18,729 nucleotides of DNA from Planctomycetota bacterium (GTDB taxonomy: Bacteria; Planctomycetota; UBA1135; UBA2386): positions 1 to 18,729 of the forward strand of contig JADZDL010000266.1 in assembly GCA_020851075.1 (NCBI GenBank), given 5' to 3'. Shown one piece after another: positions 1-18,729 of this stretch. Both the position numbers and the translations under genes were made by a program. The notes under the pieces were generated by a model, which saw only the letters and a program-made list of their open reading frames with translations, searched no databases and was not told where the DNA came from. How positions within the stretch are numbered: the stretch's first letter is position 1; each line of letters begins with the position of its first letter.

Positions 1-1
1 C

Positions 2-1423
2 CTCGAGGTGCGCGCTGGCGAAGTGCACGCGCTCGTCGGTGAAAACGGCGCCGGCAAGTCGACGCTGCTCAAGGTTCTCGCCGGCGTGCACACCGCGGAC
101 TCCGGCTCGATCGAACTCGACGGCGCCCCGTTCTCCCCCACGGATCCCGCCCACGCGCGCGCCGCCGGCCTCGCGATCATCCACCAGGAACTGGCCCTAG
201 CACCCCATCTCACGATCGCGGAGAACCTGTTCCTCGGCCGCGAACCACGCCGCGGCCCGTTCGTCGACCGCGCCCGCCTGCACACGATGGCAACCGCAGC
301 CCTCGCCGAGGTCGGCCGCGAGAACCTCGATCCGCGCACGCTGGTCGCCGCGTTGCCCCCCGCCGATCGACAACTCGTCGAGATCGCGCGCGCCCTGGCG
401 CAGGACGTACGTCTGCTCATTCTCGACGAACCCACCTCGAGCCTCGCGCGCGCCGATGTCGAGCCGCTGCTCGCGCGGTTGCGCGCACTCGCTGCGCGCG
501 GCACCGCGGTGGTCTACGTCTCGCACGTGTTTGAAGAACTCTTCGCGGTCGCCGATCGCTACACGGTGCTGCGCGATGGCGCCACGGTCGCCACTGGCAC
601 GATCGCCGAGACGACGCACGACGCCCTCGTCGCCGCGATGGTCGGGCGCAGCGTCACCGAACTCTATCCGCGCACCAAGAACACGCCCGGCGACGTCGTT
701 CTCGACCTCGACGGCCTTTCTGGGCGCCGCCTGCCACAAGGCGCCTCGCTACAACTGCGCCGCGGTGAAGTGCTCGGACTGGCCGGCCTCATCGGCGCCG
801 GCCGCACCGAACTGCTGCGCGCGGTCTTCGGACTCGACCCCGTGCTCGCCGGCCGCGTGCGCGTGGTCGCCACCGAAGGCCCACTCGACCCCGCGCAGAA
901 CTGGCAGCACGGCACGGGCCTGCTCAGCGAAGACCGCAAGGGCGAAGGGCTGCTGCTCGCGCGTTCGCTCGCCGAGAACCTCTGGCTGCCGGTGCTCTCA
1001 CGCCGCGCCCGACATGGCTGGTTGTCCCCACACCAGCTCGAACGCTCCGCCATCCCCTGGTTGCAGCGTTTCGCGGTGCGCTGCTCCGGCAGCGACCAGG
1101 CAATCGGCCAGCTCTCCGGCGGCAACCAACAGAAGGTGGCACTCGCTCGCCTGCTCGCCGCCGACGCCGAGGTGCTGCTGCTCGACGAACCAACACGCGG
1201 CGTCGACATCGGCGCCAAAGCCGAGATCTACGCGGCGATCGACCAACTCGCGCACCGGCAAGGCAAAGCCGTGCTCGTGGTCTCGAGCTACCTGCCCGAA
1301 CTGCTCGGCATCGCCGACCGCATCGCCGTGGTCTGCCGCGGCAAGGTCCTGCCCGCGCGCCCCACCACCGAACTCAACGAACACACCTTGCTGGCCGCGA
1401 TGACCACGGGAAGGACCGCATGA
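2..1423 (+). CDS. Sugar ABC transporter ATP-binding protein (CUT2 family, duplicated ABC cassette; RbsA/XylG/MglA-like); 5' end lies outside the window
   Basis: First cassette has Walker A 'GENGAGKST', Walker B 'LLILDEPTS' and sits before 'LSPTDP...'. Second cassette has Walker A 'GLIGAGRTELL', ABC signature 'LSGGNQQKVALAR' and Walker B 'LLLDEPTRGVD'. The tandem duplication within one polypeptide is typical of CUT2 monosaccharide importers. The ORF runs to the window edge, so the N-terminus is missing. Confidence 0.85.
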   Translation, partial: LEVRAGEVHALVGENGAGKSTLLKVLAGVHTADSGSIELDGAPFSPTDPAHARAAGLAIIHQELALAPHLTIAENLFLGREPRRGPFVDRARLHTMATAALAEVGRENLDPRTLVAALPPADRQLVEIARALAQDVRLLILDEPTSSLARADVEPLLARLRALAARGTAVVYVSHVFEELFAVADRYTVLRDGATVATGTIAETTHDALVAAMVGRSVTELYPRTKNTPGDVVLDLDGLSGRRLPQGASLQLRRGEVLGLAGLIGAGRTELLRAVFGLDPVLAGRVRVVATEGPLDPAQNWQHGTGLLSEDRKGEGLLLARSLAENLWLPVLSRRARHGWLSPHQLERSAIPWLQRFAVRCSGSDQAIGQLSGGNQQKVALARLLAADAEVLLLDEPTRGVDIGAKAEIYAAIDQLAHRQGKAVLVVSSYLPELLGIADRIAVVCRGKVLPARPTTELNEHTLLAAMTTGRTA

Positions 1424-2496
1424 ATCTCCGTCGCCTCTGGCGCGCGTTGGGGCCGCTGCTCGGCCTGCTCGCAACCTGGCTCCTGTTCGCATCGCTGGCC
1501 GGCAGTTCGTTCACGAACTGGAACAACACCGAACTCATGCTGCTGCAGACCGCGGTGGTCGGCACGGCGGCCGTCGGGGCGACCTGGATCATCGTCAGCG
1601 GCGGCATCGACCTCTCGGTCGGTTCCTCGATCGCGCTCGCCACGATGGCCGGCGCAAAGACCCTCGCCGCGGGCGGCGGACTCGCGCTCGCAATGCTGGC
1701 CACCGTGGCAACCGGCACGGTCATCGGCTGGCTCATCGGCGCCCTCGTGGTCGGCGCGTTGCTGCGCGTGCTCGCGACGCTGCTCGCCGGCGGAGTCGTC
1801 TTCTTGCTCTGCCGTGCTCTCGGCGGCTGGGCCACCCCACTAGCCCTTCTGGCCGCCACCACCGCCTGGTTCGCCAGTCGCCGCCTCACGTGGACGCTGC
1901 CGCTGTCGCCGTTCATCGTCACGCTCGGCCTCTGGGGCACCTTGCGCGGCCTCGCCAAGGGCCTCGGCGACAACCAGCCGATCTACTTCGAACGCAACGA
2001 AACGCTGAGTGGCCTCATGGTCACCGGCGGCCTGCTGCCCACCGGCGTCTGGGTCCTCCTAGCCGTCGCCACAATCGCCGCCCTGCTGCTGCAGCGCACC
2101 GTGTTTGGCCGGCGTGTCACCGCCATCGGTTCCAGCCGCCAGACTGCGCGCCTCTGCGGCGTCTCCGTGCCGCGCACCGAACTGCTCGTCTACGTGCTCG
2201 GCTGCACCTGCGCCGGCATCGCCGCCGTGCTGCAACTCTCCTACCTCTCGATGGGCGATCCGACGACTGCGCAGGGTTATGAGCTGAAGGCGATCGCGGC
2301 GGCGGTGATCGGCGGCGCTTCGTTGACTGGCGGCGAGGGCGCAATCTTCGGCACGCTGCTCGGCGCGTTCATCATGACGGTGGTCGACAACGGGTGTACG
2401 AAGCTGGGCCTCGACAACTGGGTCCAGGAAGTGGTGACCGGCGGCATCATCGTTGCCGCGGTGGCTCTCGATCGGTTGCGGCAGCGCGGGAACTAG
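1420..2496 (+). CDS. ABC transporter permease (RbsC/XylH-like, BPD_transp_2 family)
   Basis: The ATG overlaps the upstream stop (ATGA at 1420-1423), indicating translational coupling with the ATPase. The 358-aa product is highly hydrophobic with 8-10 predicted TM helices. Its conserved C-terminal region '...AIAAAVIGGASLTGGEGAIFGTLLGAFIMTVVDNG...' is typical of sugar ABC permeases. Confidence 0.8.
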   Translation: MNLRRLWRALGPLLGLLATWLLFASLAGSSFTNWNNTELMLLQTAVVGTAAVGATWIIVSGGIDLSVGSSIALATMAGAKTLAAGGGLALAMLATVATGTVIGWLIGALVVGALLRVLATLLAGGVVFLLCRALGGWATPLALLAATTAWFASRRLTWTLPLSPFIVTLGLWGTLRGLAKGLGDNQPIYFERNETLSGLMVTGGLLPTGVWVLLAVATIAALLLQRTVFGRRVTAIGSSRQTARLCGVSVPRTELLVYVLGCTCAGIAAVLQLSYLSMGDPTTAQGYELKAIAAAVIGGASLTGGEGAIFGTLLGAFIMTVVDNGCTKLGLDNWVQEVVTGGIIVAAVALDRLRQRGN

Positions 2497-2511
2497 CTCC
2501 CCGCCGCCGGC

Positions 2512-4299
2512 TCAATCCAGCTCGAACACTGGCCCGACGGGCCGAAACGGCAATCGTCTGCCGCCGATCAGCACGAACGCGTGGGACCGCGGGACCGAGA
2601 GCACTTCGCACATGCCGTCGGTGAGGATCAGGATGGGCCCATCGGGCGGAAACGTGTCGCTGTGCACGAGCAAGTCGATGCCGGGCTGCAGTCGAGTCCC
2701 GCCTCGCCCTTGCACCTTCAGGCGATCCGCGATCGCCATCGGATCCAGGTATCCAGCGTCATACGGCACCGCATCGTTGTAGACGACGCGCACGCGCGGC
2801 ACCGAGTGGCTGTCGGCGTAGGACGCAATCGCGCCGAGAGCCTTGCCCAGTTGCCGCACATCCATCGAACTCGAGGTGTCGAGCACCACACCAAACGTCC
2901 GGGCGCGCTGCAGATCCAACGGCGTCACATAACGCGGCCTCGGAATCTCCGGCGTGCTCGCCTGCCGCCGACTCGGCCGCGCGTAGGTGCGACGTTGCTC
3001 GATCGCCGGAAACCACGCGTCGAACCACTGCGCGAGCTTCACATCCCACGGAATTACCGGTTGCTGCAGCGCACGGATCTCTTCGATCAACCCTGCAGGA
3101 AGCAACCCACGCCCCTCGGTGTACAGATCGAGGCCGCGCGCGAGGCACGATCGGTAGAACGCGTCGAGATCCGTGAAGTCCCCAGGCCGACGCAACCCTC
3201 CTTCGATCATGTCGCCGAGCTGGCCACCGCGCAGGGTCAACAACTTGCGCGCGCGGCGCAGGTCCTTGGCAAGGCGATCGTAGATCTCTTCCGCACTCTG
3301 CCCGGCCAGCGCCGGATCGTGCAGCATGCCAAACGATGGTGGTGCGCCAACTCGCATCTCGAGCAACCACCCATTGATGACGAAGTCACACGCGATATTC
3401 CACAGATACGGATCGCGTCCACGCCGCCGATCGAGGTGGCGAAGGCCCACGTGCAGGTATTCGTGGGCGAGCACGAACTTCGCCTGTTCGAGCTGCAGGC
3501 CAGCGCGCGGACTCACGTAGACGACCTGCGCAACCTCGTCGATGGCGGCCACGGCGATATCAAACCGCGAACAGAGTTCGGGATCCTCGACGAGTTCGAA
3601 CGAGCGCGCGAGCGCCCCGAGCAACGGGTAGCTGCTGAGAAACCACTGCCTGGCCTGCATCGCGACGGACATCGTCGGAGCACCATCAAGCAACGATTTG
3701 CGCACCCCACCCGCCATGTCGACGGCGCTGCGCACCGCAGCGCGCAGACCCTGCGCAAACAGGGCCGCCCAATCGACCAGCACGCCCCGGGAGTCCTTGC
3801 GTGGACCATCGACGATCATGTCGGCGTGCCCGGGCGCCGTGGAAAGCCCCGTGATTGCCGACGGAATGCCATCGCGCCCGAACAACTCGTACAGTCGTTC
3901 TTCGTCGCGCGCCGTCGGCTGCTCAGGCAATTGGGCCGTCGCCGGCAGACGCCCGATCCCAAGCCCCTTCACGAAACGGGCAACGATCAGATCACAAGCC
4001 GCATTCCACGCGCGTGGGTTGTCGCGCACCTGGAAGTGACCAAACGCGAAGTGCAGCGTGCAGTGCGCGAGCACCCACAACCACTCGTCGGTCTCGGCGC
4101 GGCGTTTCGGGTGCAGCCAGATGCTGCCGCTCTGCGCCGCCACGGCCCAGCCGTCTTCGGGGCAGCGCCGGTCGCGATGAATGCCCAACTGGATCGCAAG
4201 CGGTCCAAACAACGGGTGGTTGCGCAAGGTGGCGATTGCCGCGCCGAGTCGCGCCTCGGCTTCGCGGCCCGCTTCGTCTCCACTGCGCTTACTTGCCAT
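2512..4299 (-). CDS. vWA-domain protein with two tandem DUF2201-like putative metallopeptidase modules (MoxR partner; 'VWA + metallopeptidase' family)
   Basis: The C-terminus has a vWA/MIDAS motif 'VVLDTSSSM' (DxSxS), followed by 'GGTRLQ' and 'LILTDG'. Two repeated modules are present, each of the form 'VLAHxxLH...WN(A/I)ACD(L/F)(I/V)'. The second module has a canonical HExxH ('HEYLH', 3451-3465). The first has 'HCTLH' (4051-4065). The ATG at 4297-4299 lies 5 nt downstream of the MoxR stop. The longer ORF start at 4371 would overlap MoxR by 83 nt. Confidence 0.8.
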   Translation of the reverse strand: MASKRSGDEAGREAEARLGAAIATLRNHPLFGPLAIQLGIHRDRRCPEDGWAVAAQSGSIWLHPKRRAETDEWLWVLAHCTLHFAFGHFQVRDNPRAWNAACDLIVARFVKGLGIGRLPATAQLPEQPTARDEERLYELFGRDGIPSAITGLSTAPGHADMIVDGPRKDSRGVLVDWAALFAQGLRAAVRSAVDMAGGVRKSLLDGAPTMSVAMQARQWFLSSYPLLGALARSFELVEDPELCSRFDIAVAAIDEVAQVVYVSPRAGLQLEQAKFVLAHEYLHVGLRHLDRRRGRDPYLWNIACDFVINGWLLEMRVGAPPSFGMLHDPALAGQSAEEIYDRLAKDLRRARKLLTLRGGQLGDMIEGGLRRPGDFTDLDAFYRSCLARGLDLYTEGRGLLPAGLIEEIRALQQPVIPWDVKLAQWFDAWFPAIEQRRTYARPSRRQASTPEIPRPRYVTPLDLQRARTFGVVLDTSSSMDVRQLGKALGAIASYADSHSVPRVRVVYNDAVPYDAGYLDPMAIADRLKVQGRGGTRLQPGIDLLVHSDTFPPDGPILILTDGMCEVLSVPRSHAFVLIGGRRLPFRPVGPVFELD

Positions 4300-5353
4300 C
4301 GCGCCGCTCCACGAGGCGCGGCAGGTCGCGCACGACCTCACGCAGCAACCACGCGGGCAGGTCCTTGCCACTACTCTGGTCCGCTACGACTACCTGCGCA
4401 ATCTCGAGGCTGATCGCAGCGAGCTGTTCGAGCAGGGCCTTCGCGCGATGCGCCATCTGGCGCTGCGCCCCACTCACGACACTCTCATCGGCCGGCAATT
4501 CGCGCACGACATGCGAACGAAACGCCTGGGCCAGGAAGTACAGCAGGTCGCGATCCTCCGCGCGCCCCGGCCAGCCGATCTCGCCATCGAGAATCGACTG
4601 CAACCGATGCCGGCCGCGCAACTGCTTCAAGAAGCCGAGGAACTGGCTCGCATGCGCCGGCGTCAGGCAACCGTACGCGAGCGCCTCGAGCGGCCGGCCC
4701 GTGACTTCGAGGCCGAACTCATGCAGGGCATCGCTGAGCATGTGCCACGAACGCGGCGTCGAGAACGGCTCTTCGTGCTTGGGCGGCTTGCTCCACAGGT
4801 GTTCGGGCCGCAGTTCGATGTACTCGAGCACCCACGCATGGATGCCACTCTCCCGCGCCCAGACCAGCCAATCCGTCACCGAGACGCGCAGGTGCACGTG
4901 CACCATACGATTGATCAGCGCCGACGACATGGTGCGCACGATGGCACTGTCCTGCGCCCGGTTGCCTGCCCCGATCACGATCGACCCTTTGGGCAGGTGG
5001 TATTCGCCGATGCGGTGTTCGTGGATCAGGCTGTAGAACGCCTTCTGCACCTCGTGACTGCACGCGTTGAGTTCGTCGAGAAACAGGCAGTACGGCTCTT
5101 CCCGCGCAATCGAGACCGGTGGGCAGAAGCGACTCTTGCCACCTTCGATCTGCGGCACGCCGATCAGGTCTTCGGGGGCCAACTGACTGCCGAGCAGCGA
5201 CACACACGGGATGCCAAGCTGTTCGGCAAAACGCGCCACGAGGGCCGACTTACCGATGCCCGGCGCGCCCCAGAGGAAGACGGGACGGACGACGGCGACC
5301 TCGAGCAAGAATGCAAATAGCTCGCTTTGGGAAAGGGTGATCGGGTCGTTCAT
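4289..5353 (-). CDS. MoxR-like AAA+ ATPase (AAA_5 family)
   Basis: Walker A 'LWGAPGIGKSAL' and Walker B 'CLFLDELN' are present, with a single AAA+ module of about 350 aa. It sits immediately upstream of a vWA-protein gene, the canonical MoxR-vWA pairing (RavA-ViaA, CbbQ-CbbO and NorQ-NorD-like). Start was chosen at the ATG at 5351-5353 ('MNDPITLSQ...'), about 30 aa before the P-loop. An in-frame GTG at 5416 is an alternative start. Confidence 0.8.
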   Translation of the reverse strand: MNDPITLSQSELFAFLLEVAVVRPVFLWGAPGIGKSALVARFAEQLGIPCVSLLGSQLAPEDLIGVPQIEGGKSRFCPPVSIAREEPYCLFLDELNACSHEVQKAFYSLIHEHRIGEYHLPKGSIVIGAGNRAQDSAIVRTMSSALINRMVHVHLRVSVTDWLVWARESGIHAWVLEYIELRPEHLWSKPPKHEEPFSTPRSWHMLSDALHEFGLEVTGRPLEALAYGCLTPAHASQFLGFLKQLRGRHRLQSILDGEIGWPGRAEDRDLLYFLAQAFRSHVVRELPADESVVSGAQRQMAHRAKALLEQLAAISLEIAQVVVADQSSGKDLPAWLLREVVRDLPRLVERRDGK

Positions 5354-5434
5354 CGGCTGGTAGTCATCGGCGGGTAGGTTGCACGATAAGGGCCTAGAAT
5401 GCCACGGGGGGGCCACCGGGAGCCACCCACTCGA

Positions 5435-5989
5435 CTACGCCAACTCCTCCCCCCGCTCCACCATCACTCGAAGCCGCAGCCGACACAACCGCAGGTGCGC
5501 CTCGACATCGCGCGGCCGCACCCAATCAAACCCGATGCGCTCCCAATCCGGATCGTCGGGATCGAGCCCGATCTCGCGGATCGCGTCGTGCACCGTGATG
5601 AAGAACTGCTTGCGGTACGGCAACAGGTAGCCGCCCTCGTCACGCAACGACGCCGCAGCTTCCTCATAGCCCGCAAACCACCGGTTCAGATACGGCGCCA
5701 TGCGATCGCTGTGCATCGTCACCGAACGCAACCCAGGCAGACACGACTCCAGCACCGCCGCCCACGACACAAAACCGTGCGCCAATGCGACCACCGCCAG
5801 AGCATCGGCGCGCGATACCAGGGCCGTCCCGTCGATGAGTTCCTCGAGCGAAGCCGACGCGAAGTGCGCCAACTGCGCAAACTGCACCGCCGCCGCGCGC
5901 GCGAGGTGCACGTCGCCGGACTTGAGGTCGCGCTGCAAGGCGCGCGCTTCCTGCCGGCAGCGGTCGACAAACCCCTCGTCGTCCTTCAT
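5435..5989 (-). CDS. Hypothetical protein (184 aa), no recognisable motif
   Basis: The ORF 'MKDDEGFVDRCRQEARAL...VMVERGEELA' has its ATG at 5987-5989, overlapping the YkgJ stop by 4 nt (ATGA). Codon usage matches its neighbours. I recognise no family, and it contains no TM segment or signal peptide. Confidence 0.55.
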   Translation of the reverse strand: MKDDEGFVDRCRQEARALQRDLKSGDVHLARAAAVQFAQLAHFASASLEELIDGTALVSRADALAVVALAHGFVSWAAVLESCLPGLRSVTMHSDRMAPYLNRWFAGYEEAAASLRDEGGYLLPYRKQFFITVHDAIREIGLDPDDPDWERIGFDWVRPRDVEAHLRLCRLRLRVMVERGEELA

Positions 5990-6378
5990 GCGGGATCCAG
6001 CCTTCCTGCGGGATCCAGCGGCTCGATGCCAGGACACGTGCGCTGCACCAGACGCAGCAGTTCGGGATCGCGGAGCACCTCGGGCCAGAACGGCCACTCG
6101 CGGCACTTCGCGGGCCGCACCGTATAGATCCCGCAGCTCGCTTCGGCGCCGTCCTGCAGGAACACGCAGCGGTTGCCAAACCCGTCCTTGAGCCGCACCC
6201 CATCGGGCTGCAGGTAACGACTCGCGAAGGCTTCCTCCGACAGGCCGAGTAACGCGGCGATCGCGGCCTTCTCGGCGGAGGTCACGCGCACAATGCCGCC
6301 CGGGATCGAACAACAATTGCCCGACCGACGGCACGTAAAGCGGAACGGGTACCCAGGCTGCGTATCCGCCACGTTCAC
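5986..6378 (-). CDS. YkgJ-family protein (CxxCxxCC zinc/iron-chelating domain, UPF0153)
   Basis: The N-terminal motif 'FTCRRSGNCCSIPGG' (C-x4-C-C, GxV) and later Cys residues ('GNRCVF', 'CGIY', 'AKCREW') are typical of the YkgJ/FliB-like Fe-S/Zn family. The GTG start at 6376-6378 overlaps the kinase stop (GTGA). The stop at 5986-5988 overlaps the next gene's ATG. Confidence 0.65.
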   Translation of the reverse strand: MNVADTQPGYPFRFTCRRSGNCCSIPGGIVRVTSAEKAAIAALLGLSEEAFASRYLQPDGVRLKDGFGNRCVFLQDGAEASCGIYTVRPAKCREWPFWPEVLRDPELLRLVQRTCPGIEPLDPAGRLDPA

Positions 6379-7469
6379 CGCCGACGGCGCCGGCTCCGCC
6401 GGTCGAACATGCCACCACTGCGCCCCAGCGGAGACCGCGCGCCACCGAGCTTCGGCTTGTCGCGCTGCTGCTGTTCTTCGAGTTCGCGCTGGTGGCGTAC
6501 CTGCTGCAGGAACGCCTCGACCTCGCGCTGCAGTTGTTTCGGATCCTGGAACCGCATCTCCGGATCCTTCGCCATCATCTTCTCGAGGAAGTAGTGCAGC
6601 TGCGGCGACAGGTGCAAGGCGCGAATGCGTTCGCCGGACAGCGACTCGAGCACCTGCTTGGCGAGCACTTCCTCACTCGTCTTGCCTTCAAACGGCAACG
6701 AGCCCGTCGTCAGGTGGTAGAGCGTCGCGCCGAGCGCGTAGATGTCGGCGCGCACGTCGAGCTGGTGGCTGCCGCGGGCCTGCTCGGGCGCGATGTAGTG
6801 CACCGTGCCCGCCGTCGTCTCGCCCGTGCCCTGGTCGTTCTGCGCCATCGCGAACCCGAGGTCGATGAGCACCGCGCCGCGCTCCTCGGACCACAGGATG
6901 TTGCCGGGTTTGACGTCGCGGTGCACGAGACCCCGTTCGTGCATCACATCGAGCGCGCTGGCGACCTCGACCGTGATCTCGAGCGCGGTCTCCTCGTCCA
7001 GGCGGCCTTCCTCGGCGAGCACGTCCTGCAGGCAGCGCCCGGGCACCTGCTCCATCGCGAAGAAGATCGTCTCCCCCTCCTTGGCGACGCGCAGCCCCTT
7101 CACGAGGTGCGGGTGTGCGAGGTCCATGAGCAGGCGCGCTTCCTTGACGAAACGTTCGGCCTGGGCCGGGTCCTTGGCGAGCTCGGGCCGCAGCACCTTC
7201 AGCGCGATCGGCGTGTTCGGCGCATCCTTGGCTCGATCCTTGGCGGCGAACACACGCCCAACCCCGCCTTCGCCGAGCAGCTCGCCCACTTCGTAGCGGC
7301 TGAGAACGGGCCGCGTGCCACCTTCATTGCGCGACCACTGCTCCCACTGCTGCGCCGTGCAGTGCCCGCGTTTCACGAGGAATGATCCGGCCGCACCGGA
7401 CAACATCGCTTCGCGCGCGAGTTCGGCGGGCACGAGGCCGCGATGCACGAGGATCGCCAGCAGCTTCAT
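6375..7469 (-). CDS. Hanks-type Ser/Thr protein kinase with N-terminal GspE-N/MshEN-like segment
   Basis: Kinase motifs are present: Gly-loop 'GEGGVGRV', 'IALKVL' (VAIK Lys), catalytic loop 'HRDVKPGNIL', 'DLGFA' (a DFG variant) and 'GTVHYIAPE'. The N-terminal ~45 aa ('KLLAILVHRGLVPAELAREAMLS...FLVKRGHCTAQQWEQW') resemble the tandem motifs of T2SSE_N/MshEN domains. Start taken as the ATG at 7467-7469. An in-frame GTG at 7481 is an alternative. Confidence 0.85.
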   Translation of the reverse strand: MKLLAILVHRGLVPAELAREAMLSGAAGSFLVKRGHCTAQQWEQWSRNEGGTRPVLSRYEVGELLGEGGVGRVFAAKDRAKDAPNTPIALKVLRPELAKDPAQAERFVKEARLLMDLAHPHLVKGLRVAKEGETIFFAMEQVPGRCLQDVLAEEGRLDEETALEITVEVASALDVMHERGLVHRDVKPGNILWSEERGAVLIDLGFAMAQNDQGTGETTAGTVHYIAPEQARGSHQLDVRADIYALGATLYHLTTGSLPFEGKTSEEVLAKQVLESLSGERIRALHLSPQLHYFLEKMMAKDPEMRFQDPKQLQREVEAFLQQVRHQRELEEQQQRDKPKLGGARSPLGRSGGMFDRRSRRRRR

Positions 7470-7683
7470 GTCCGGATTCACGTGGTTACAGGCTCTGTAG
7501 GTCCAACGACTTCGGGGGTTTCACGCACCAAGCGTCAAGTCATAACACGGATGCACCCGAAAAGGAGCGCAACCGAACCAGGCAACAAGGCACGACTTGA
7601 AGCACCCAGGAGCTGCGTTCGTCATCAAGTACTTCGACTTGATCGACGAGTTCATCAAAGTACGCTGCTGCTCGGAGGAGCTG
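7470..7683. promoter_or_regulatory. Divergent intergenic region between the kinase operon (-) and the Clp-D2-like gene (+); presumed promoters for both
   Basis: This ~200-bp non-coding stretch has locally reduced GC compared with its flanks. It contains an inverted repeat 'atcaagtacttcgacttgat' at 7627-7646. A Shine-Dalgarno 'ggagga' at 7674-7679 precedes the ATG at 7684. No consensus -35/-10 could be assigned with confidence. Confidence 0.4.
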
Positions 7684-8952
7684 ATGCAGGAAATGCATGC
7701 TTCCCCGATCACCAACAAGTCGACTTACCGCAATCGAGTCGTGCGCGCCTGCGTGCCCACGTTCGAATCGGACGTGCTCGCGGCTGTCCGCCGCATGGAC
7801 GAAGGGTACGACACCGAGATCGTCGAGGAGCTGCTCTACCAGATCTGCATCGACGTAAACCCGTCGCTCGAGATCCACCAGGTGAGCATCCCATCGCCGA
7901 ACGGCCAGAAGGCCCAGAGCGAATCGGAGGACATCTTCCTGCCGCGCCCAGGCAACGACAGCGCCCGCCAGAGCCTGTTCCGCCGGGTGACCAACCTCGA
8001 GCGCGGGCTGCGCCAGCAGATCATCGGCCAGGACGAGGGTATCACCTCCCTCGTGCGTGCCGTGAAGAAGGCCGCCGTCGGCCTGAAGCGCCCGACCCAC
8101 CCGGTCGGCACCTTCCTGCTCGTTGGCCGCACGGGCACGGGCAAGACCGAACTCGCCAAGGCCGTCGCGCGCAACCTGTTTGACGACCCGCAGGCCATGA
8201 TCCGCGTCGACTGCAGCGAGTATGCGCTGCCGCACGAGTACGCCAAGCTGATCGGCTCGCCGCCTGGCTACATCGGCCACAACGAAGGTGGTTTCCTCAC
8301 CGAGGCCATCAAGAAGAAGCCCAACAGCGTCGTGCTGTTCGACGAGGTCGAGAAGGCGCACTACAAGGTGCACAACCTGCTCCTGCAGCTGCTCGACGAA
8401 GGCATCATCACCGACAGCAAGGGCCAGACGGTCTCGTTCCACCAGGCGATGATCCTCATGACGAGCAACCTCGGCATCGAGAAGATCGACGCCGTGCGCA
8501 CCCGCATGGGCTTCTCCGCCGCGCATCGCCGCCAGAGCCTCCAGGACGTCGACCTGCGCAACGTCACGCTCGAAGCGCTGAAGGAGTTCTTCCGCCCCGA
8601 GTTCGTGAACCGCATCGACGAAGTCGTGATGTTCAACCCACTCGACGAGAAGGTCTGCCAGCGCATCGCCGGCAACATGCTGCGCGAGGTGTCGGACCTG
8701 CTGAAGCGTCGCAACATCACCGTGAACTTCTCGCCAGGCGTGCGGGTATTGCTCGCCAAGCAGGGTTTCTCCGAAGAATACGGCGCCCGCGAACTGCGCC
8801 GCCTCATCAAGCGCCGCATCGAGGATCCGCTCACCGAGATGATCCTCGACCACGACCTCGGCCAGGGTGCCGTGGTCACGGTGCGCGTGCGCAACGGCGA
8901 CTACAGCCTCGCCTGCGGCGGCCAGGTGCCGCGCGCCGTCCAGCCGGCCTGA
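7684..8952 (+). CDS. Stand-alone ClpA/ClpC D2-type AAA+ ATPase (AAA_2 + ClpB_D2-small) with novel ~110-aa N-terminal region
   Basis: The D2-like sensor/Walker region reads 'IIGQDEGI...', 'LLVGRTGTGKTELAKAVA', 'IRVDCSEYALPHEYAKLIGSPPGYIGHNEGGFLTEAIKKKPNSVVLFDEVEKAH', 'LLQLLDEGIITDSKGQTVSFHQAMILMTSNLG', and aligns almost position-by-position with ClpB/ClpC D2. The C-terminal 'FRPEFVNRIDEVVMFNPL' corresponds to the D2-small domain. The segment 'RTRMGFS' sits where ClpA/ClpC carry the IGL/VGF ClpP-docking loop. No Clp-N, D1 or M-domain is present. Start chosen at the ATG preceded by GGAGGA. The ATG at 7693 is an alternative. Confidence 0.8.
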   Translation: MQEMHASPITNKSTYRNRVVRACVPTFESDVLAAVRRMDEGYDTEIVEELLYQICIDVNPSLEIHQVSIPSPNGQKAQSESEDIFLPRPGNDSARQSLFRRVTNLERGLRQQIIGQDEGITSLVRAVKKAAVGLKRPTHPVGTFLLVGRTGTGKTELAKAVARNLFDDPQAMIRVDCSEYALPHEYAKLIGSPPGYIGHNEGGFLTEAIKKKPNSVVLFDEVEKAHYKVHNLLLQLLDEGIITDSKGQTVSFHQAMILMTSNLGIEKIDAVRTRMGFSAAHRRQSLQDVDLRNVTLEALKEFFRPEFVNRIDEVVMFNPLDEKVCQRIAGNMLREVSDLLKRRNITVNFSPGVRVLLAKQGFSEEYGARELRRLIKRRIEDPLTEMILDHDLGQGAVVTVRVRNGDYSLACGGQVPRAVQPA

Positions 8953-9053
8953 ACCGCGCCGGCCTGAACTGCGATCGGGCGCTGTTCCCGCGTGAATCGG
9001 GGGCGCCGTCCCCCTAACCTCATGGGGTAGCCCTCCGGGCCGCGTCCGACCCC

Positions 9054-10307
9054 ATGTTGCTGTTCGTTCTCGCTGTCGCGTTCTCGCTGGTATTCTCGTT
9101 CATCTGCTCGCTGGCGGAAGCGACCCTGCTCAGCGTCAGCAAGGCCCGCGTCGAACAACTCGCCCGCGCCGGCAGCCGCGCAGGCACCTTGCTGCGCCGC
9201 TTCAAGCAGGAACCCGACCGGCCGATCGCCGCGATCCTGGTGCTCAACACGATCGCCAACTCCGGCGGTGCGGCGTGGGCGACCGAGCAGTTCGGCGAAG
9301 CGTTCCCGGGCATCAGCCCGGCCTGGTTCGCGGCGATCTTCGTCGTGATGGTGCTGACCTTCACGGAGATCGTGCCAAAGACGATCGGTGTCGTACACGC
9401 CAACAGCCTCTGCGTGCCGATCACGCACATGGTGCACTGGATGATCCTGGTGCTCGCTCCCGCGCTGTACCTGACCCGCATCATGTCGCGCATGTTCTCG
9501 CGCAAGCCGGTCGTACACTCGACGTCGCTCGACGAGATTCGCGTGCTGACGACGGCGGGGCTGACCCAGGGTGCCTTCGGCGCCATCACCGCTGGCCTCA
9601 TCGAGAACGCCACCCGCCTGCGCGACACGAAAGCGCGCGACGTCATGGTGCCCCGCAACCGCGTTGCCTACCTGTCGGGCACCGACTCGACCGAAGCCAA
9701 CCTCGATCGCATCCACAAGAGTGGCCACAGCCGGTTCCCGTATTCCCCGACCGGCGAACTCGATGGTGTGACCGGCGTGATCCTGACCAAGGAGCTGCTG
9801 TTCTCCCTGCGCGAACACACCGAGCCCGAGTGGCAGGACCTGCTCGTGCCGATGCTCATCGTGCCCGAAACGGCGACGCTGAATCACGTGCTGCGGCACT
9901 TCCAGCGCGAGAAGCGGCATATGGCGATCGTCGTCGACGAGTATGGCTCGACGCTCGGGATCATCACGCTCGAAGACGTGCTCGAGGAGATCGTCGGCGA
10001 GATCGAGGACGAACTCGACACCGAAGAAACGCACATGCTCGAACGCCCGGACGGCTCGCTGCTGTGCCGCGGCTTCGCGGAAGCCCGCAAGGTGTTTGCG
10101 CGGCTCGGCCTCGAGGACGTCGAAACCTACAGCCAGACGCTGTCCGGGTTCCTGGCCGAGCAACTGGGCAACATGCCGTCCGCCGGCATGCACATCGACT
10201 TCCGCGGTTATCGCTTCACCGTGACCAAGGCAAACAACAAGCGGGCCGAGCGCGTGCGCATCACGCCCCTGCGCAACGTCGAGGCGGGCGAACCCGAGGG
10301 GACGTAA
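9054..10307 (+). CDS. CNNM/CorC/HlyC-family transporter (DUF21 TM domain + CBS pair + CorC_HlyC C-terminal domain); putative Mg2+/Co2+ efflux or 'hemolysin-family' protein
   Basis: The N-terminal 4-TM DUF21 region begins 'MLLFVLAVAFSLVFSFICSLAEATLLSVS' (the typical 'SA.E.A' opening). Tandem CBS motifs follow ('ARDVMVPRNRV...', 'HMAIVVDEYGSTLGIITLEDVLEEIVGEIEDE'), then a C-terminal transporter-associated domain ('GSLLCRG...FTVTKANNKRAERVRI'). Confidence 0.85.
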   Translation: MLLFVLAVAFSLVFSFICSLAEATLLSVSKARVEQLARAGSRAGTLLRRFKQEPDRPIAAILVLNTIANSGGAAWATEQFGEAFPGISPAWFAAIFVVMVLTFTEIVPKTIGVVHANSLCVPITHMVHWMILVLAPALYLTRIMSRMFSRKPVVHSTSLDEIRVLTTAGLTQGAFGAITAGLIENATRLRDTKARDVMVPRNRVAYLSGTDSTEANLDRIHKSGHSRFPYSPTGELDGVTGVILTKELLFSLREHTEPEWQDLLVPMLIVPETATLNHVLRHFQREKRHMAIVVDEYGSTLGIITLEDVLEEIVGEIEDELDTEETHMLERPDGSLLCRGFAEARKVFARLGLEDVETYSQTLSGFLAEQLGNMPSAGMHIDFRGYRFTVTKANNKRAERVRITPLRNVEAGEPEGT

Positions 10308-10502
10308 ACGGCGGGAACCGGCGGCTTCTCGACAGATTTCCGGGTATTTCGTCCACATCTTCGATACATCCGCAGGCGATGCCCTCGCCCTGCGGCAGCC
10401 AGCCGAGCGCACGGTGCGCAAGGCCGGCTTTCCGAGTCGCTGCAACCTGAGTCGCTGGCAGGTGGGTTACCCACCCGCAGCCCCAATGGAGAACAGGATC
10501 CC

Positions 10503-11069
10503 ATGAGCACGGTCTTCCTTTATTGCGCCGCAATCGGTGGAACGATCCTGGTCCTGCAGTTCCTCATGCTGCTGCTCGGCGCTGGTGGGGACGGGGATGG
10601 TGGCCACACCCACGCCGGCGGCGACCTCGGCGATGGCCACGTCGACATCGGCCACGACCAGGCGTCGTTCCTGAAGCTGCTCTCGCTGCAGACCGTGTCG
10701 ACGTTTGCGACGTTCTTTGGCCTCATCGGCCTCGCCACCGAAGGGCTCGCCTGGTCTCCGATCGCAGTGGTCGGGGCGGCGACCATGGCCGGAGCCGCTG
10801 CGCTCTGGTTTGTCACCCGGCTCATGCACGGCCTTGCCCGCCTGCAATCGAGCGGCACCGTGAACCTCAAGAACGCGATCGGCCACACCGCCAACGTCTA
10901 CCTGCGCATTCCGCCGCACGGCCAAGGCCACGGCCGGGTGATGCTGCAGGTGCAGGGCCGCACCGTCGAATGCACCGCGGTGAGCCGCGGCGACGAGATC
11001 CCGACCGGCGCCGAAGTGCGCGTCATCGAACACAAGGACGACGACATGCTCGTCGTCGAGCCCGCCTGA
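10503..11069 (+). CDS. NfeD-family membrane protein (short form, YqiJ/YuaF-like; TM segments + C-terminal OB-fold)
   Basis: Two hydrophobic segments are followed by the C-terminal β-rich 'GHTANVYLRIPPHGQGHGRVMLQVQGRTVECTAVSRGDEIPTGAEVRVIEH', the NfeD OB-fold. The gene sits immediately upstream of a flotillin gene, the classic nfeD-flotillin pair. A 'GGAGA' SD lies ~10 nt before the ATG. Confidence 0.75.
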   Translation: MSTVFLYCAAIGGTILVLQFLMLLLGAGGDGDGGHTHAGGDLGDGHVDIGHDQASFLKLLSLQTVSTFATFFGLIGLATEGLAWSPIAVVGAATMAGAAALWFVTRLMHGLARLQSSGTVNLKNAIGHTANVYLRIPPHGQGHGRVMLQVQGRTVECTAVSRGDEIPTGAEVRVIEHKDDDMLVVEPA

Positions 11070-11148
11070 CCAGCCCATAGCCGGGCGCACCTTTCCCCAC
11101 CTCTTCCCCCACGTCGCTGGAGCCAAGGTTCCGGCAGGAGACCCCTCG

Positions 11149-12789
11149 ATGTTTGCGCTGATCGACGAAGACCCCAACCTCTTCCTCTTGCTCACGGTCG
11201 CGGCCACCGCCCTCATCCTGCTCGGCTTCGTGATCCTCGTCGTGAAGCGCTACAAGCGCTGCCCGAGCAACAAGGTGCTCGTGATCTTCGGCAAGGTTGC
11301 ATCGGGCCAGTCCGCACGCTGCCTGCACGGCGGTGGCGCGTTCGTGTGGCCACTGATCCAGGACTACGCGTTCCTGTCGCTCGATCCGATGCAGATCGAG
11401 ATCCCGCTGCGCGGTGCGCTGTCGGCCGAGAACATCCGCGTCAACGTGCCGAGCGTGTTCACCGTCGCCGTCGGCACCGGGGCGGCCGTGATGCAGACCG
11501 CGGCCATCCGCCTGCTCGGCCTCGACCCGCGCCAGGTCATGAAGCAGGCCGAGGACATCATCCTGGGCCAGCTGCGCCAGGTGATCGCGTCGATGACGAT
11601 CGAGGACATCAACCGCAACCGCGACAAGTTCCTCGACAGCGTGCAGAACTCGCTGACACCCGAGCTCGAGAAGATCGGCCTCGTGCTCATCAACGTCAAT
11701 ATCACCGACATCACCGATGAGTCGGGCTACATCGAGGCGATGGGCCGCAAGGCCGCGTCCGAGGCGATCCAGTCGGCCGAGATCGACGTCGCGCAACAGC
11801 AGAAGCGCGGTTCGATCGGCGTCGCCGAAGCCAAGCGCGAGCAGGACGTGCTCGTCAGCAACGCCGAAAAAGTGCGCGAGATCGGCACCAAGGAAGCCGA
11901 GCGTGAGAAGCTCGTGCGCCTCGCGGAGCTCGACAAGGAGACCGGCATCGGCAAGAGCCTGGCCAACCTCGAACAGCAGACCGCGATCAAGGACCAGGAA
12001 CGGCGCATGCGCGTGCAGGTCGCCGAGGCCGAAGCCGAAGCGGTGACCGGTGAGAACCTCGCCCGCGCGAAGAGCGTCGACGCCGAAGCGAACCTCAAGG
12101 TCCGTCAGGCCGAAGCCTACCAGCTGACCGAGACGCGCCGTCGCGAAGCCGAAGCCAAGGTGCGCGAAGCGCAGTATCTGGCCGAAGCACGCGCCGCCGA
12201 CGCGATGGCGACCAAGATCGAAAGCGAACAGCGCGCCGAGTTCGAAGCTTCGGCGAAGGCACAGAAGGCCAAGCTCATCGTCGATGCCGAAGCGCAGGCC
12301 GAACAGATCCGGCTGCGGGCGCAGGCCGAAGCCACCGCGACGTTCGCGCGGCTCGAAGCGCAGGCGCGCGGTGAATACGAGATCCTCGCCAAGAAGGCCG
12401 AAGGTCTGCAGCGCATCGTCGAAGGTTGTGGCGGCGCACAACAGGCGTTCCAGTTGCTCATGCTCGAGCACCTGCCGCAGATGGCGGAAACGGCGGCCAA
12501 GGCGATCGCGAACGTCAAGTTCGACAAGGTCGTGGTCTGGGACGGCGGCCCCGGCAAGGACGGCAAGAGTGCCACCGCGGGGTTCCTGCAGGGCCTCGCT
12601 GGCAGCTTGCCGCCGATGCTGCAGATGATGCGCGATATCGGTGGTGTGGAGATGCCGGCCTACTTCGGCAAGCTCGCCGAGGCTCCGGGCGCGATGGCGG
12701 CGCCGGCCGCGGCCTCACCCACAGCACCGGCGGTGCCTTCCCCCGTGGCGGCGTCGAGCAAGCCGAACGCAGGCCCGCAGAAGGGCTGA
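11149..12789 (+). CDS. Flotillin-family SPFH/band-7 protein (FloT/YqiK-like)
   Basis: An N-terminal TM segment is followed by an SPFH domain, then a long Ala/Glu-rich coiled-coil ('AEAEAEAVTGENLARAKSVDAEANLKVRQAEA...') and the flotillin C-terminal region. The tail is Ala/Pro-rich. An SD 'aggag' lies 8 nt upstream of the ATG. It is paired with NfeD upstream. Confidence 0.85.
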   Translation: MFALIDEDPNLFLLLTVAATALILLGFVILVVKRYKRCPSNKVLVIFGKVASGQSARCLHGGGAFVWPLIQDYAFLSLDPMQIEIPLRGALSAENIRVNVPSVFTVAVGTGAAVMQTAAIRLLGLDPRQVMKQAEDIILGQLRQVIASMTIEDINRNRDKFLDSVQNSLTPELEKIGLVLINVNITDITDESGYIEAMGRKAASEAIQSAEIDVAQQQKRGSIGVAEAKREQDVLVSNAEKVREIGTKEAEREKLVRLAELDKETGIGKSLANLEQQTAIKDQERRMRVQVAEAEAEAVTGENLARAKSVDAEANLKVRQAEAYQLTETRRREAEAKVREAQYLAEARAADAMATKIESEQRAEFEASAKAQKAKLIVDAEAQAEQIRLRAQAEATATFARLEAQARGEYEILAKKAEGLQRIVEGCGGAQQAFQLLMLEHLPQMAETAAKAIANVKFDKVVVWDGGPGKDGKSATAGFLQGLAGSLPPMLQMMRDIGGVEMPAYFGKLAEAPGAMAAPAAASPTAPAVPSPVAASSKPNAGPQKG

Positions 12790-12790
12790 G

Positions 12791-12820
12791 GCACCGCGCG
12801 GTGCTGCCGATGGCATCGGC
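12791..12820. terminator. Two adjacent GC-rich palindromes immediately 3' of the flotillin stop (possible intrinsic terminator/attenuator or protein-binding site)
   Basis: 'gcaccgcgcggtgc' (12791-12804) is a perfect 14-bp palindrome. 'gccgatggcatcggc' (12806-12820) is a near-perfect one. No U-tract follows, so a classical rho-independent terminator is doubtful. Confidence 0.25.
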
Positions 12821-12881
12821 GGCACCGCCGGCCCGCCGCAAGGTGCGCGATCCGGACCGCGCCAGGTGCCGATGCAATGGC

Positions 12882-13562
12882 ATGGACACCAGCCTGTGGA
12901 TGGCGCGCGACCTGCTCACGGTCACGCCTGACACCCCGGTCACGCTCGCGACCAAGCGCATGGCCGAGCGCCGCGTCCGCCACTTGCTGGTGGTCTCTCC
13001 CGACGATGCGACCAAGCTCCTCGGCCTCGTTTCGAGCCACGACCTCTACCTCGCGGCTGACCCAGGCATCCACCCACTGTCGCCGCGCGCACTCGATCGC
13101 GAGCAGCACACCATCGGCGAGGTGATGACGCCGCGGCCGTTCTCGATTCCATCGAACACCTCGATCGCGGCCGCCGCGCGCATCCTGCGCGACAAGAAGT
13201 TCGGCTGCCTGCCGGTGGTCGACCGCGGCGTGCTGGTCGGGGTACTCACCGAACACGACATCCTGCGCGCGTTCCTCAGCATGTCGGGCGCCGACCAACC
13301 GGGCTACGAAGTCACCTGCGTCGTGAACGAAGACGACAACGTGCTCGATTCGATGAACGTGCTCGCGACCCAGCGCGGCCTGCGGCTCACGAGCGCCGCG
13401 GTCTTCGATCACGACGGCAAGCGCTACGGCGTCGTGCACTTCGTCGGCAAGCAGAGTGATGCGTTCGTCGAGTCGCTGTGGCGCTCGGGGCACAAGATCC
13501 TGCGCGTGCAGGCCAGTGAGGCGGCAGGCCTGCCTCGGCCGGTCCCAGCACCGACCCGGTAG
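12882..13562 (+). CDS. CBS-pair domain protein with C-terminal ACT-like region
   Basis: Two CBS motifs are present ('ARDLLTVTPDTPVTLATKRMAERRVRHLLVV' and 'IGEVMTPRPFSIPSNTSIAAAARILRDKKFGCLPVVDRGVLVGVLTEHDILRAF'), plus a ~80-aa C-terminal βαβ-like region. Start assigned to the first ATG after the flotillin stop ('MDTSLWMARD'). The ATG at 12900 is an alternative. The ORF is open further upstream only because of the high GC. Confidence 0.7.
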   Translation: MDTSLWMARDLLTVTPDTPVTLATKRMAERRVRHLLVVSPDDATKLLGLVSSHDLYLAADPGIHPLSPRALDREQHTIGEVMTPRPFSIPSNTSIAAAARILRDKKFGCLPVVDRGVLVGVLTEHDILRAFLSMSGADQPGYEVTCVVNEDDNVLDSMNVLATQRGLRLTSAAVFDHDGKRYGVVHFVGKQSDAFVESLWRSGHKILRVQASEAAGLPRPVPAPTR

Positions 13563-13633
13563 ACGCAACGCAATCACGCGCCGAGGGTGCGCAAACGGTC
13601 ATTTCGGCCTACGATGGGACCAGGAAGTCCCCT

Positions 13634-15703: not shown

Positions 15704-15725
15704 CGACTTCTTGCCCGTGACGACC

Positions 15726-15746
15726 GGCGGCCTCACCGCGGCCGCC
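15726..15746. terminator. GC-rich hairpin between convergent genes (secreted protein + / lipoprotein -)
   Basis: 'ggcggcc-tcaccgc-ggccgcc' forms a 7-bp stem with a 7-nt loop in the 42-bp convergent gap. There is no T-tract. Confidence 0.2.
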
Positions 15747-16153
15747 TACTTCGCGCTGCCGCGAATCGGCATTTGGTTGGTCACTTCCTCGAGGATTAAC
15801 TTCGCGCGGCGTTCGTTGTCCTTGGTATCAAACGTGCCCACCCGCGCCGTGACGCGCACGTAACCGCCCGGATGCTGCTCGACGCGGACCTTGGTCTTCT
15901 CGACCTCGATCGTGCCCTCGGTCGCGCCCACCTGGGGCTCGCCAGCAATCGGATATCCAAGTTTGCGCATCGCCCGCAGCGTCGCGGCCCACGACTCGGG
16001 CAGGGTCTCCTTGAAGTCCATCCACGCTTCGTTGTGCTCGTAGCTCACAGCACCAGCGGCCGCCGCGCCGACCGCGGCAGCGGCGGCGAGAAAACACCCG
16101 GACAACGGCAGCGCACAAACGAGACCCAACGCAAGGAGTGGTGAGCGGTGCAT
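15746..16153 (-). CDS. Small lipoprotein of unknown function (135 aa)
   Basis: The ATG at 16151-16153 gives 'MHRSPLLALGLVCALPLSGCF', a lipoprotein signal peptide with lipobox 'LSGC'. The remainder is a soluble ~110-aa domain. The ORF track's longer version (to 16216) adds an unlikely Arg-rich leader. Confidence 0.6.
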   Translation of the reverse strand: MHRSPLLALGLVCALPLSGCFLAAAAAVGAAAAGAVSYEHNEAWMDFKETLPESWAATLRAMRKLGYPIAGEPQVGATEGTIEVEKTKVRVEQHPGGYVRVTARVGTFDTKDNERRAKLILEEVTNQMPIRGSAK

Positions 16154-16240
16154 GGTCCTACGGGACCACGCGAGCCCACGCTTGTCCAGGGCACACCCGC
16201 GAACGCGAGTTCCCAAGAGCAGGCACCTATCGCAGGCGGC

Positions 16241-17119: not shown

Positions 17120-17270
17120 GGGGTGCCTAACCAGATTGGGGACAGGAACGCATGACTGTAGCAGAGAGCGTGGCACCCTGGGGCCGGTACGTCTTTCTGG
17201 CATCTCCCGCAATCGCGCCCGCCAGTGGTGTTCGCCAGCGGGGCAACGACGGCACAGCGAGAGCCCGCGA

Positions 17271-18728: not shown

Positions 18729-18729
18729 C

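Follow-up and report, generated by a model that had tools for sequence, protein, structure and literature searches.

The vWA gene of an 18,729-nucleotide stretch of Planctomycetota DNA (GenBank assembly GCA_020851075.1, contig JADZDL010000266.1, positions 1 to 18,729; hereafter the window) lies directly behind a gene for an AAA_5-type ATPase. Our analysis indicates that the two products probably form a pair consisting of the ATPase and a vWA adaptor/protease with one live zincin and one non-catalytic pseudo-zincin, and that the pair may be linked to RNA repair at the level of its family. The vWA gene (2512..4299, stop codon included) was delineated from its open reading frame, its translation, and Pfam matches and encodes 595 residues; an identical product is called in public assemblies. 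All features of both genes lie on the minus strand, and residues are numbered from the ATG at 4299. From the N terminus, the protein comprises an N-proximal module (N-module; residues 15–200, 3700..4257), which is a degenerate zincin-like pseudo-peptidase, an inter-module linker (residues 197–212, 3664..3711), a C-proximal module (C-module) with an intact zincin core (residues 212–395, 3115..3666), a connector (residues 396–465, 2905..3114), and a MIDAS (metal ion-dependent adhesion site)-bearing vWA domain (residues 466–595, 2515..2904).

A first-pass annotation of the window had proposed that the protein carries a tandem duplication of a putative metallopeptidase module. This duplication is real. 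BLASTP of residues 1–207 against residues 208–595 gave 28% identity across 152 residues (E = 6e-10), and comparison of N- and C-module profiles built from 120 homologs using hhalign gave a probability of 99% and an E-value of 2.6e-18 over 162 columns. The Pfam family DUF2201_N (PF13203, "putative metallopeptidase domain") matched the whole protein in two stretches with 104.5 bits. On their own, the N-module scored 26.5 bits and the C-module core 68.3 bits, both above the gathering cut-off of 23.2 bits. Profile coverage extended from position 3 to 134 (the zincin core) in the N-module and from position 6 to 257, running on toward the vWA domain, in the C-module. Because the N-module covers only positions 3–134, the N-terminal unit is a duplicated core rather than a copy of the whole peptidase-connector unit. 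Indeed, the connector, which by profile coverage includes the C-terminal part of DUF2201_N, occurs once and has no counterpart behind the N-module. It is among the best conserved segments of the protein, with a mean pairwise identity in close homologs of 72.6% compared with 73.4% for the vWA domain.

In the N-module the sequence HCTLH (residues 79–83, 4051..4065) has a cysteine in place of the catalytic glutamate and is followed by H88 (4036–4038) at +9. WNAACD (residues 98–103, 3991..4008) was identified by homolog alignment as the counterpart of WNIACD in the C-module (residues 300–305, 3385..3402), where N301 and D305 are invariant. The corresponding C-module sequence HEYLH (residues 279–283, 3451..3465) is an HExxH motif for which H288 (3436–3438), at +9, is the probable third ligand. 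The motif positions given in the first-pass annotation are correct, as are its residue numbers C104 and E304 (Cys-80 and E280 here), which were counted from a GTG start at 4371. Of the signature it ascribed to both copies, VLAHxxLHxxxxH...WNxACDxxV is indeed shared, but the leading tryptophan is found only in copy 1 (W73), copy 2 having A273.

The two modules are also alike in predicted fold. An AlphaFold2 model of the full-length protein (predicted local distance difference test (pLDDT) 84, predicted template modeling score (pTM) 0.43) has an identical order of secondary-structure elements in each module, namely two helices, three short strands, the motif helix, a long second helix, two short helices, and a long closing helix. 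Predicted alone, the N-module reached a pLDDT of 93 and a pTM of 0.88. It has the three-stranded sheet, active-site helix, and second helix with further site residues of a zincin, and the equivalence of the two folds, which the first-pass annotation had set down as a check on its proposal, is borne out by the models, with no sign of a differing fold. A Foldseek search of viral models (BFVD) matched the N-module to the peptidase part of single-module phage "metallopeptidase/VWA-like" proteins of 380–440 residues with a probability of 1.0 and TMq values up to 0.62. The family profile matched selecase MJ1213 (PDB 4qhf/4qhi) with an E-value of 7.6e-5 over the C-module strand and HExxH helix, and selecase is the nearest experimentally characterized peptidase to the family. 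A PDB sequence search with the single protein returned only a marginal match to 3gvz (E = 0.04), which we judged uninformative, and the N-module profile alone retrieved nothing meaningful from the PDB, only designed repeat proteins.

Relatives of the protein were collected in three sets. A word-indexed search (E ≤ 1e-5) found 4,874 relatives, the best 120 of which (the close set) are ∼583–617 residues long with 52–73% identity to the window protein and include Planctomycetota, Thermoanaerobaculia, Armatimonadota, Brevibacillus, and others. A representative set, with one sequence per 50% cluster, contained 64 full-length members of the two-module clade, 63 of which were scored for the N-module. 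The genome set, with one genome per species, comprised 80 loci (81 sequences in the motif tally) from Clostridia, Paenibacillaceae, Cyanobacteria, Chloroflexota, Acidobacteriota, Myxococcota, Comamonadaceae, Azospirillum, and Phycisphaerae at ∼47–56% identity. In addition, an exhaustive HMMER search with the C-module and vWA domain against 1.84 billion representatives gave 7,676 matches at E ≤ 1e-3, of which 206 had E ≤ 1e-30. Because the two-module form is shared by the ∼600-residue relatives and by loci across phyla, the duplication is ancient and defines the subfamily. As judged by these comparisons, the two-module form is the ancient, defining architecture of a large cross-phylum subfamily of which the window gene is an ordinary member. 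Any impression from the first-pass annotation that this gene stands out by its duplication is not supported.

The suggestion that typical family members are single-module proteins is consistent with the phage proteins of ∼380–440 residues among the relatives whose architecture was inspected. A tblastn search of phage genomes found 55 records with family members, which include N4-like phages of Erwinia, Escherichia, Achromobacter, Sulfitobacter, and Roseobacter as well as jumbo Pseudomonas phages. In Erwinia phage phiEaP8 (AWN06238/AWN06239 pair) a 349-residue ATPase is encoded directly upstream of a 377-residue single-module protein matching DUF2201_N (1.7e-46) and DUF2201 (3.9e-33). This protein aligns with residues 214–537 of the window protein (27% identity, E = 1e-23), and its HExxH region also aligns weakly with the window N-module. 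Some phage records, for example NC_049510.1, NC_071039.1, NC_070850.1, and OR805292-5, name the single-module homologs as endonucleases ("HNH endonuclease" or "homing endonuclease"), in what looks like misannotation. Elsewhere the homologs of those phages are entered as "hypothetical protein" or "metallopeptidase domain protein." A homolog of the C-module and vWA domain with 54% identity (H1) was also found at 2847–4007 of an unannotated 15-kb contig named "Bacteriophage sp." from a human fecal sample (MT835968.1). Since bona fide phage proteins have ∼25% identity, this contig is probably a bacterial or prophage fragment.

The C-module carries the hallmarks of a competent zincin, namely an HExxH motif and a third ligand. 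H279, E280, H283, H288, N301, D305, and N309 were found in all 120 close homologs, and H279, E280, H283, H288, and D305 in all 81 genome sequences. Among the representatives, E280 was kept in 61 of 64, and the other C-module residues were near-invariant. The C-proximal copy, whose site is under strong purifying selection, is therefore the canonical HExxH module described in the first-pass annotation, and on the basis of these residues it is predicted to be an active metallopeptidase.

The N-module, with HCTLH, lacks this hallmark. Position 80 was never occupied by glutamate in the 120 close homologs, 63 representatives, or 81 genome sequences, and the absence of the catalytic glutamate noted in the first-pass annotation for this one protein thus holds for all relatives examined. 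That annotation had further suggested that the cysteine might serve as a metal or redox ligand. On such an account Cys-80 would be a functional innovation and the N-module a live site, in which the cysteine would act as a nucleophile, bind the metal as a fourth ligand, or work as a redox or thiol switch. Cysteine is the majority residue within the clade of the query (100 of 120 close homologs and 52 of 81 genome sequences), and it is flanked in the close set by the conserved residues H79 (119 of 120), H83 (120 of 120), and H88 (118 of 120), with C102 also conserved (119 of 120). However, the other close homologs have Gly (8), Ala (5), Ser (4), Thr (1), Leu (1), or Asn (1) at this position, and such substitutions occur in homologs at 52–56% identity. 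In the 63 representatives, position 80 is Ala in 20, Leu in 12, Cys in only 10, Gly in 8, Pro in 3, and other residues, including Ser and Asn, in the remainder. Moreover, members within intact rtc operons have lost the cysteine and all three histidines: in Comamonadaceae with complete rtc operons the N-module reads LARGVLSYAMDFF, and the C-module is intact. Position 80 is also at i+1 of the first histidine, a helical position from which the glutamate would point at water and not at metal. A catalytic or redox role for Cys-80 is thus very unlikely. The survey of orthologs that the first-pass annotation had called for shows that cysteine is typical of the clade of the query and that divergent representatives have Ala, Leu, Gly, Cys, or other residues at this position. 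Judged by this distribution, Cys-80 is a clade-typical small residue and not a conserved functional replacement, an outcome that in part goes against the first-pass annotation by its own standard, under which a non-conserved cysteine would mean random drift.

The remainder of the N-module site follows the same pattern. D103 was present in 110 of the 120 close homologs, and the counts in the 63 representatives were 31 for H79, 49 for H83, 44 for H88, 32 for C102, and 19 for D103. Mean pairwise identities of the N-module, C-module, and vWA domain were 47, 66, and 73% in the close set and 21, 43, and 49% among the representatives. Within the clade of the query, many non-catalytic residues of the N-module are invariant. 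By these measures the N-module is under constraint within that clade, yet is drifting across the family. Because the glutamate is never present, the cysteine is limited to a clade, and the histidines are often lost, we regard the N-module as an ancient, eroding pseudo-peptidase rather than a new cysteine site. In YbeY, a zincin-like fold is combined with an HGxLHxxGxxH-type motif, and the position of the peptidase glutamate is taken by a small residue. The N-module of the main clade could similarly be a metal hydrolase other than a peptidase, such as a metallo-RNase resembling YbeY, which would suit the RNA-repair neighborhoods described below. Nevertheless, the N-module site is eroded in rtc operons that look functional, making such an activity extremely unlikely.

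Four homologs of ∼957–968 residues (P0123, P0182, and also P0177 and P0184) have a ∼360-residue insertion with the hallmarks of an intein. The insertion starts with C-F-P-A-G-T, contains LAGLIDADG-like blocks, ends with V-H-N followed by cysteine, and is located exactly between A303 and C304 of the active-module motif (WNxA|CD; equivalent to window positions ∼3388–3393). Inteins are unusual in zincin and vWA proteins. The placement of an intein within WNxA|CD argues that this site is functionally critical.

The vWA domain has a Rossmann-like fold with the motif DxSxS...T...D. Its MIDAS residues are D474-x-S476-x-S478 (2866–2880), T535 in the sequence GGT (2695–2703), and D561 in the sequence TDG (2614–2622). 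All five are present and are invariant or nearly so in the 120 close homologs, in agreement with the earlier claim that the MIDAS is intact. The domain matches DUF2201 (PF09967, VWA-like) with 23.5 bits (E = 6.6e-5), just under the gathering cut-off of 26.4 bits, and a precomputed PF09967 match is carried by many homologs. No NCBIfam model matches the vWA protein.

The partner ATPase (4289..5353) has 354 residues counted from the ATG at 5353 and is MoxR-like, of the CbbQ/NorQ/midasin type, as judged by Pfam and PDB matches. The end of the ATPase gene, with its stop codon, and the start of the vWA gene, with its ATG at 4299, share 11 nucleotides (ATGGCAAGTAA). The longest ATPase open reading frame (4289–5416) begins with a GTG at 5416 and encodes 375 residues; the ATG at 5353 is the likely start because homologs align from residue ∼22 of the longer frame and orthologs have 354 residues. 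Walker A (GAPGIGKS, 5246–5269) and Walker B (LFLDE, 5072–5086) are both intact, and the two genes thus constitute a co-oriented AAA+/vWA pair of the MoxR/AAA_5 class. The protein matches AAA_5 (4.6e-12) and, among PDB sequences, midasin (7e-9) and NorQ (6e-5). Its score against AAA_3 (PF07726, MoxR proper) was 18.6 bits (E = 0.0018), below the cut-off of 27 bits, and the name MoxR therefore fits the window ATPase in a broad sense only, the protein being of the AAA_5 type. With that proviso, the functional MoxR coupling put forward in the first-pass annotation agrees with gene order: an ATPase homolog with 57–75% identity lies directly upstream of the vWA gene in 77 of the 80 loci. Two of the other three begin ∼100–170 nucleotides before the vWA gene, so that the upstream region is missing, and the third (L052) gave no match. 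All-against-all clustering of the flanking open reading frames of the 80 loci revealed no other universally conserved neighbor.

The first-pass annotation overlooked the recurrent embedding of the pair in RNA-repair operons with RtcB, RlaP, Ro60, and Band-7. At 17 of the 80 loci, RtcB, RlaP, Band-7, RtcA, or RtcR is encoded ≤8 kb from the ATPase/vWA pair. In Acidovorax kalamii (L062) the order is RtcR (divergent), a tRNA-like element, Band-7, RtcB, RlaP, the ATPase, the two-module vWA protein, and RtcA. Two Clostridia loci (L001 and L004) have the order ATPase, vWA, Ro60, RtcB; an Azospirillum locus (L079) has RlaP, ATPase, vWA; and in Paenibacillaceae RtcB and Band-7 are encoded a few kilobases from the pair. 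The only Pfam families matched more than twice among 148 immediate neighbors were RlaP, TROVE, and vWA_Ro60 (three each), all of them belonging to RNA repair, with TROVE and vWA_Ro60 being the two domains of Ro60. RtcA (RTC) and RtcB were matched twice each, the same as ∼20 unrelated families. These contexts differ in gene order and come from no fewer than five or six independent lineages, but they are a minority.

These observations suggest the following scheme. The vWA and ATPase genes constitute a conserved, translationally coupled two-gene module. By analogy with CbbO, NorD, ViaA, and midasin, the MIDAS may grip an acidic residue on its partner, which would be the target or else the ATPase, and the ATPase would then remodel the MIDAS-held protein in the manner of CbbQ-CbbO, NorQ-NorD, RavA-ViaA, and midasin. 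The middle zincin, with HExxHxxxxH and WNxxCD, would be the sole catalytic center and would most likely cleave the protein engaged by the ATPase and vWA domain. The N-module arose by an ancient duplication of the zincin core, probably lost its glutamate at or near its origin, and has been eroding since. A non-catalytic function may explain its retention, the most plausible being that it partners the live module in cis as a pseudo-dimer, a gate, or a substrate-docking surface. The first-pass annotation had put forward a possible autoinhibitory or substrate-mimicking role for the inactive copy. The cellular target would probably be a protein component of damaged RNA-protein complexes, since the pair has been recurrently recruited into RtcB, RlaP, Ro60, Band-7, and RtcA operons.

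The N-module might instead inhibit the enzyme in the manner of a pro-domain until autoproteolysis at the linker cuts it off, as in zymogen minigluzincins or CLCA1, leaving a single-module mature enzyme. The linker is poorly conserved and is modeled with low confidence (pLDDT 62–70 in the full-length model), the best match of the vWA domain is CLCA1, and single-module proteins function alone in phages. In addition, the nearest structural relatives of the module include projannalysin, proabylysin, and selecase. Projannalysin and proabylysin are zymogens, and selecase is autoinhibited by oligomerization. However, there is no sign of cleavage in the present data, many invariant residues of the N-module are unrelated to an active-site plug, and the module has been kept at full zincin-core length over very long evolutionary distances. 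We therefore consider a cleavable pro-domain unlikely and favor retention of the N-module as a non-catalytic cis partner.

Several observations weigh against the scheme as a whole. No RNA-repair gene was found within 8 kb of the pair at 63 of the 80 loci (∼80%) or in the window, related genomes (five Comamonadaceae) inflate the count of 17, and the link to RNA repair may apply to a subset only. The pseudo-dimer or gate idea lacks structural support because the placement of the zincin modules is not confidently predicted (full-length pTM 0.43). The 92–100% conservation of H79, H83, H88, C102, and D103 in the clade of the query means that a metal site may persist in the N-module of the window protein. 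No biochemical data for any family member were found in the literature searched. Finally, three proteins of ∼600 residues (P0188, P0199, and P0214) and one of 759 residues (P0253) have also lost the C-module glutamate (HMALH, HLALH, or no HxxxH); these lack the glutamate in both modules, which means that not every member of the wider family needs proteolysis. In line with these divergent members, the protein might not be primarily a protease, both zincin-like modules being scaffolds for MoxR/vWA remodeling or for a metal-insertion chaperone like CbbQO or NorQD. The AAA_5/vWA pairs CbbQ-CbbO and NorQ-NorD act without proteolysis, and the nearest relatives with solved structures include NorQ and NorD. 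Against this, E280 is conserved in 120 of 120, 81 of 81, and 61 of 64 sequences alongside H279, H283, H288, N301, and D305, a pattern typical of a selected catalytic site, and the intein targets this site of the active module. A purely non-proteolytic function is accordingly quite unlikely, and we retain the assignment of the middle zincin as a protease.

A more specific proposal, which we regard as speculative and improbable as it stands, is that the ATPase and the dead-plus-live zincin-vWA protein are the proteolytic/remodeling arm of RtcB-type RNA repair. If so, the machine would act on proteins that have become stuck or cross-linked to damaged ribosomes, tRNAs, or other ribonucleoproteins, extracting or cleaving them, and this clearance would let RtcB, RlaP, and RtcA reach the RNA ends. 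The system would then be an RNA-side counterpart of the SprT/Wss1 proteases in DNA-protein cross-link repair. The pseudo-zincin would be a substrate- or RNA-recognition surface, and stand-alone copies such as that of the window would work in trans.

Proteins with DUF2201_N and DUF2201 are "predicted metal-dependent peptidases" that we take to be COG3864. In jumbo phages, a pair of MoxR AAA+ and vWA proteins with the vWA domain fused to an N-terminal metallopeptidase has been described and a role in virion assembly proposed (Iyer et al. 2021, PMC7824862). What was already known is thus the uncharacterized Pfam family and, in phages, the MoxR-vWA-peptidase pairing. The single-module phage zincin-vWA proteins share with the window protein the core HExxHxxxxH...WNxACD, the connector, the vWA domain, and the ATPase directly upstream. 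In contrast to these proteins (∼380–440 residues), the window subfamily has an extra N-terminal copy of ∼200 residues that is core-only, Glu-less, and eroding. Selecase and the minigluzincins are stand-alone archaeal mini-peptidases of ∼100 residues with no vWA domain or ATPase partner, and their likeness to the window protein is limited to the core. They are regulated by intermolecular oligomerization or a C-terminal tail, not by a fused dead copy. CbbQ-CbbO, NorQ-NorD, RavA-ViaA, and midasin involve adaptors without a zincin peptidase, and their output is remodeling or metal insertion, not proteolysis. CLCA, an animal self-cleaving zincin-vWA protein, is secreted and eukaryotic and has neither an ATPase partner nor a duplicated dead zincin; its resemblance to the window protein may be convergence. 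The SprT/Spartan, Wss1 (WLM), and ArdC zincins show no sequence-level match and have other architectures and partners, and the window protein has no DNA-binding domains.

No functional study of DUF2201/COG3864 or of combinations of MoxR, vWA, metallopeptidase, and RtcB was found in the literature searched, and no description of a fused dead-plus-live zincin as a conserved subfamily was found in the searchable literature. The family is large, highly conserved, and entirely uncharacterized, with thousands of sequences at ∼50% identity across Planctomycetota, Acidobacteriota, Bacillota, Cyanobacteriota, Chloroflexota, Myxococcota, and Proteobacteria. With a live and a dead protease fused in one protein that an AAA+ ATPase would control, the system would be a clean natural example of a pseudo-enzyme acting in cis. 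The recurrent location of the pair between RlaP and RtcA, or beside Ro60 and RtcB, offers a concrete and testable clue to a step of protein handling that is missing from bacterial RNA repair. At the level of the window the result is modest: the gene is a typical family member and Cys-80 is not functionally special.

RtcB-centered systems (RtcR-regulated rtcBA, Rsr/Ro60-Y RNA, Band-7 with a tRNA-like RNA, and RlaP) are outlined after Burroughs and Aravind 2016 in bioRxiv 10.1101/312249 and PMC12776372, the former crediting the Band-7/tRNA-like/RtcB system to that paper. The gene arrangement of L062 matches this system as given in bioRxiv 10.1101/312249. Orthologs of the window pair lie inside such operons (L062 and L001/L004), whereas the window copy lies outside any. 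Recurrent insertion of the pair into rtc, Ro60, and Band-7 operons was not found described in the searchable literature but may already be known (Burroughs and Aravind 2016). The 18.7 kb of the window contain no RtcB, RlaP, Ro60, operon-type Band-7, RtcA, or RtcR gene, and no tRNA, Y-RNA-like, or Rfam element was found there.

Upstream of the window ATPase, with a gap of 81 nucleotides to its start, is a 336-residue open reading frame without a Pfam hit (5435–6445, minus strand), followed by a Ser/Thr protein kinase gene (6375–7481, minus strand). The boundaries of these two genes are uncertain because the frames overlap by ∼70 nucleotides. The other window genes noted encode a ClpX-like AAA_2 protein (7597–8952, plus strand), a CNNM/CorC transporter (9054–10307, plus strand), a 546-residue SPFH/Band_7 protein (11149–12789, plus strand), a CBS-domain protein (12426–13562, plus strand), and UvrC (17271–18728, minus strand). 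Participation of the 336-residue protein, the kinase, an ABC permease, or the ClpX-like protein in the system was rejected, as they have essentially no counterparts beside the pair in 80 other genomes. The ClpX-like, CNNM/CorC, Band_7, CBS, and UvrC genes show no linkage to the pair elsewhere, and the operon-type Band-7 proteins found in RtcB systems are unrelated to the Band_7 protein of the window.

Assignment to a defense system was likewise discarded. PADLOC gave no hit for the vWA protein and only faint IetA-like P-loop hits for the ATPase. The PD-T4-6 hits of the upstream kinase were strong but generic for Pkinase. MoxR-vWA ternary conflict systems involve VMAP, iSTAND, FtsH, and beta-propeller components (Kaur et al. 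2020, PMC7159879). Membership of the window pair in such a system was rejected, there being no third conserved neighbor in the 80 loci and a bpMoxR score of 17.3 bits against a cut-off of 27.

Structural RNAs were noted at several of the other loci. The tRNA-like element of L062 (2284–2345, plus strand), located between RtcR and Band-7, scored 35.9 bits against the Rfam tRNA model and was not called by ARAGORN; it agrees with the band-7-associated tRNA that has been predicted. In L065, ARAGORN called a tRNA-Cys at the corresponding site. The end of the L062 locus (1–289, minus strand) matched RNase P RNA in Rfam with 165.9 bits, beside the end of the rtcR open reading frame (300–1934, minus strand). 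In L052, a Phycisphaerales metagenome-assembled genome (CBDUZO010000027.1), an array of 28 tRNA genes (11314–15137) lies downstream of the two-module vWA gene, at a distance of ∼1.7 kb, and upstream of a Band-7 gene (16143–17153), at ∼1 kb.

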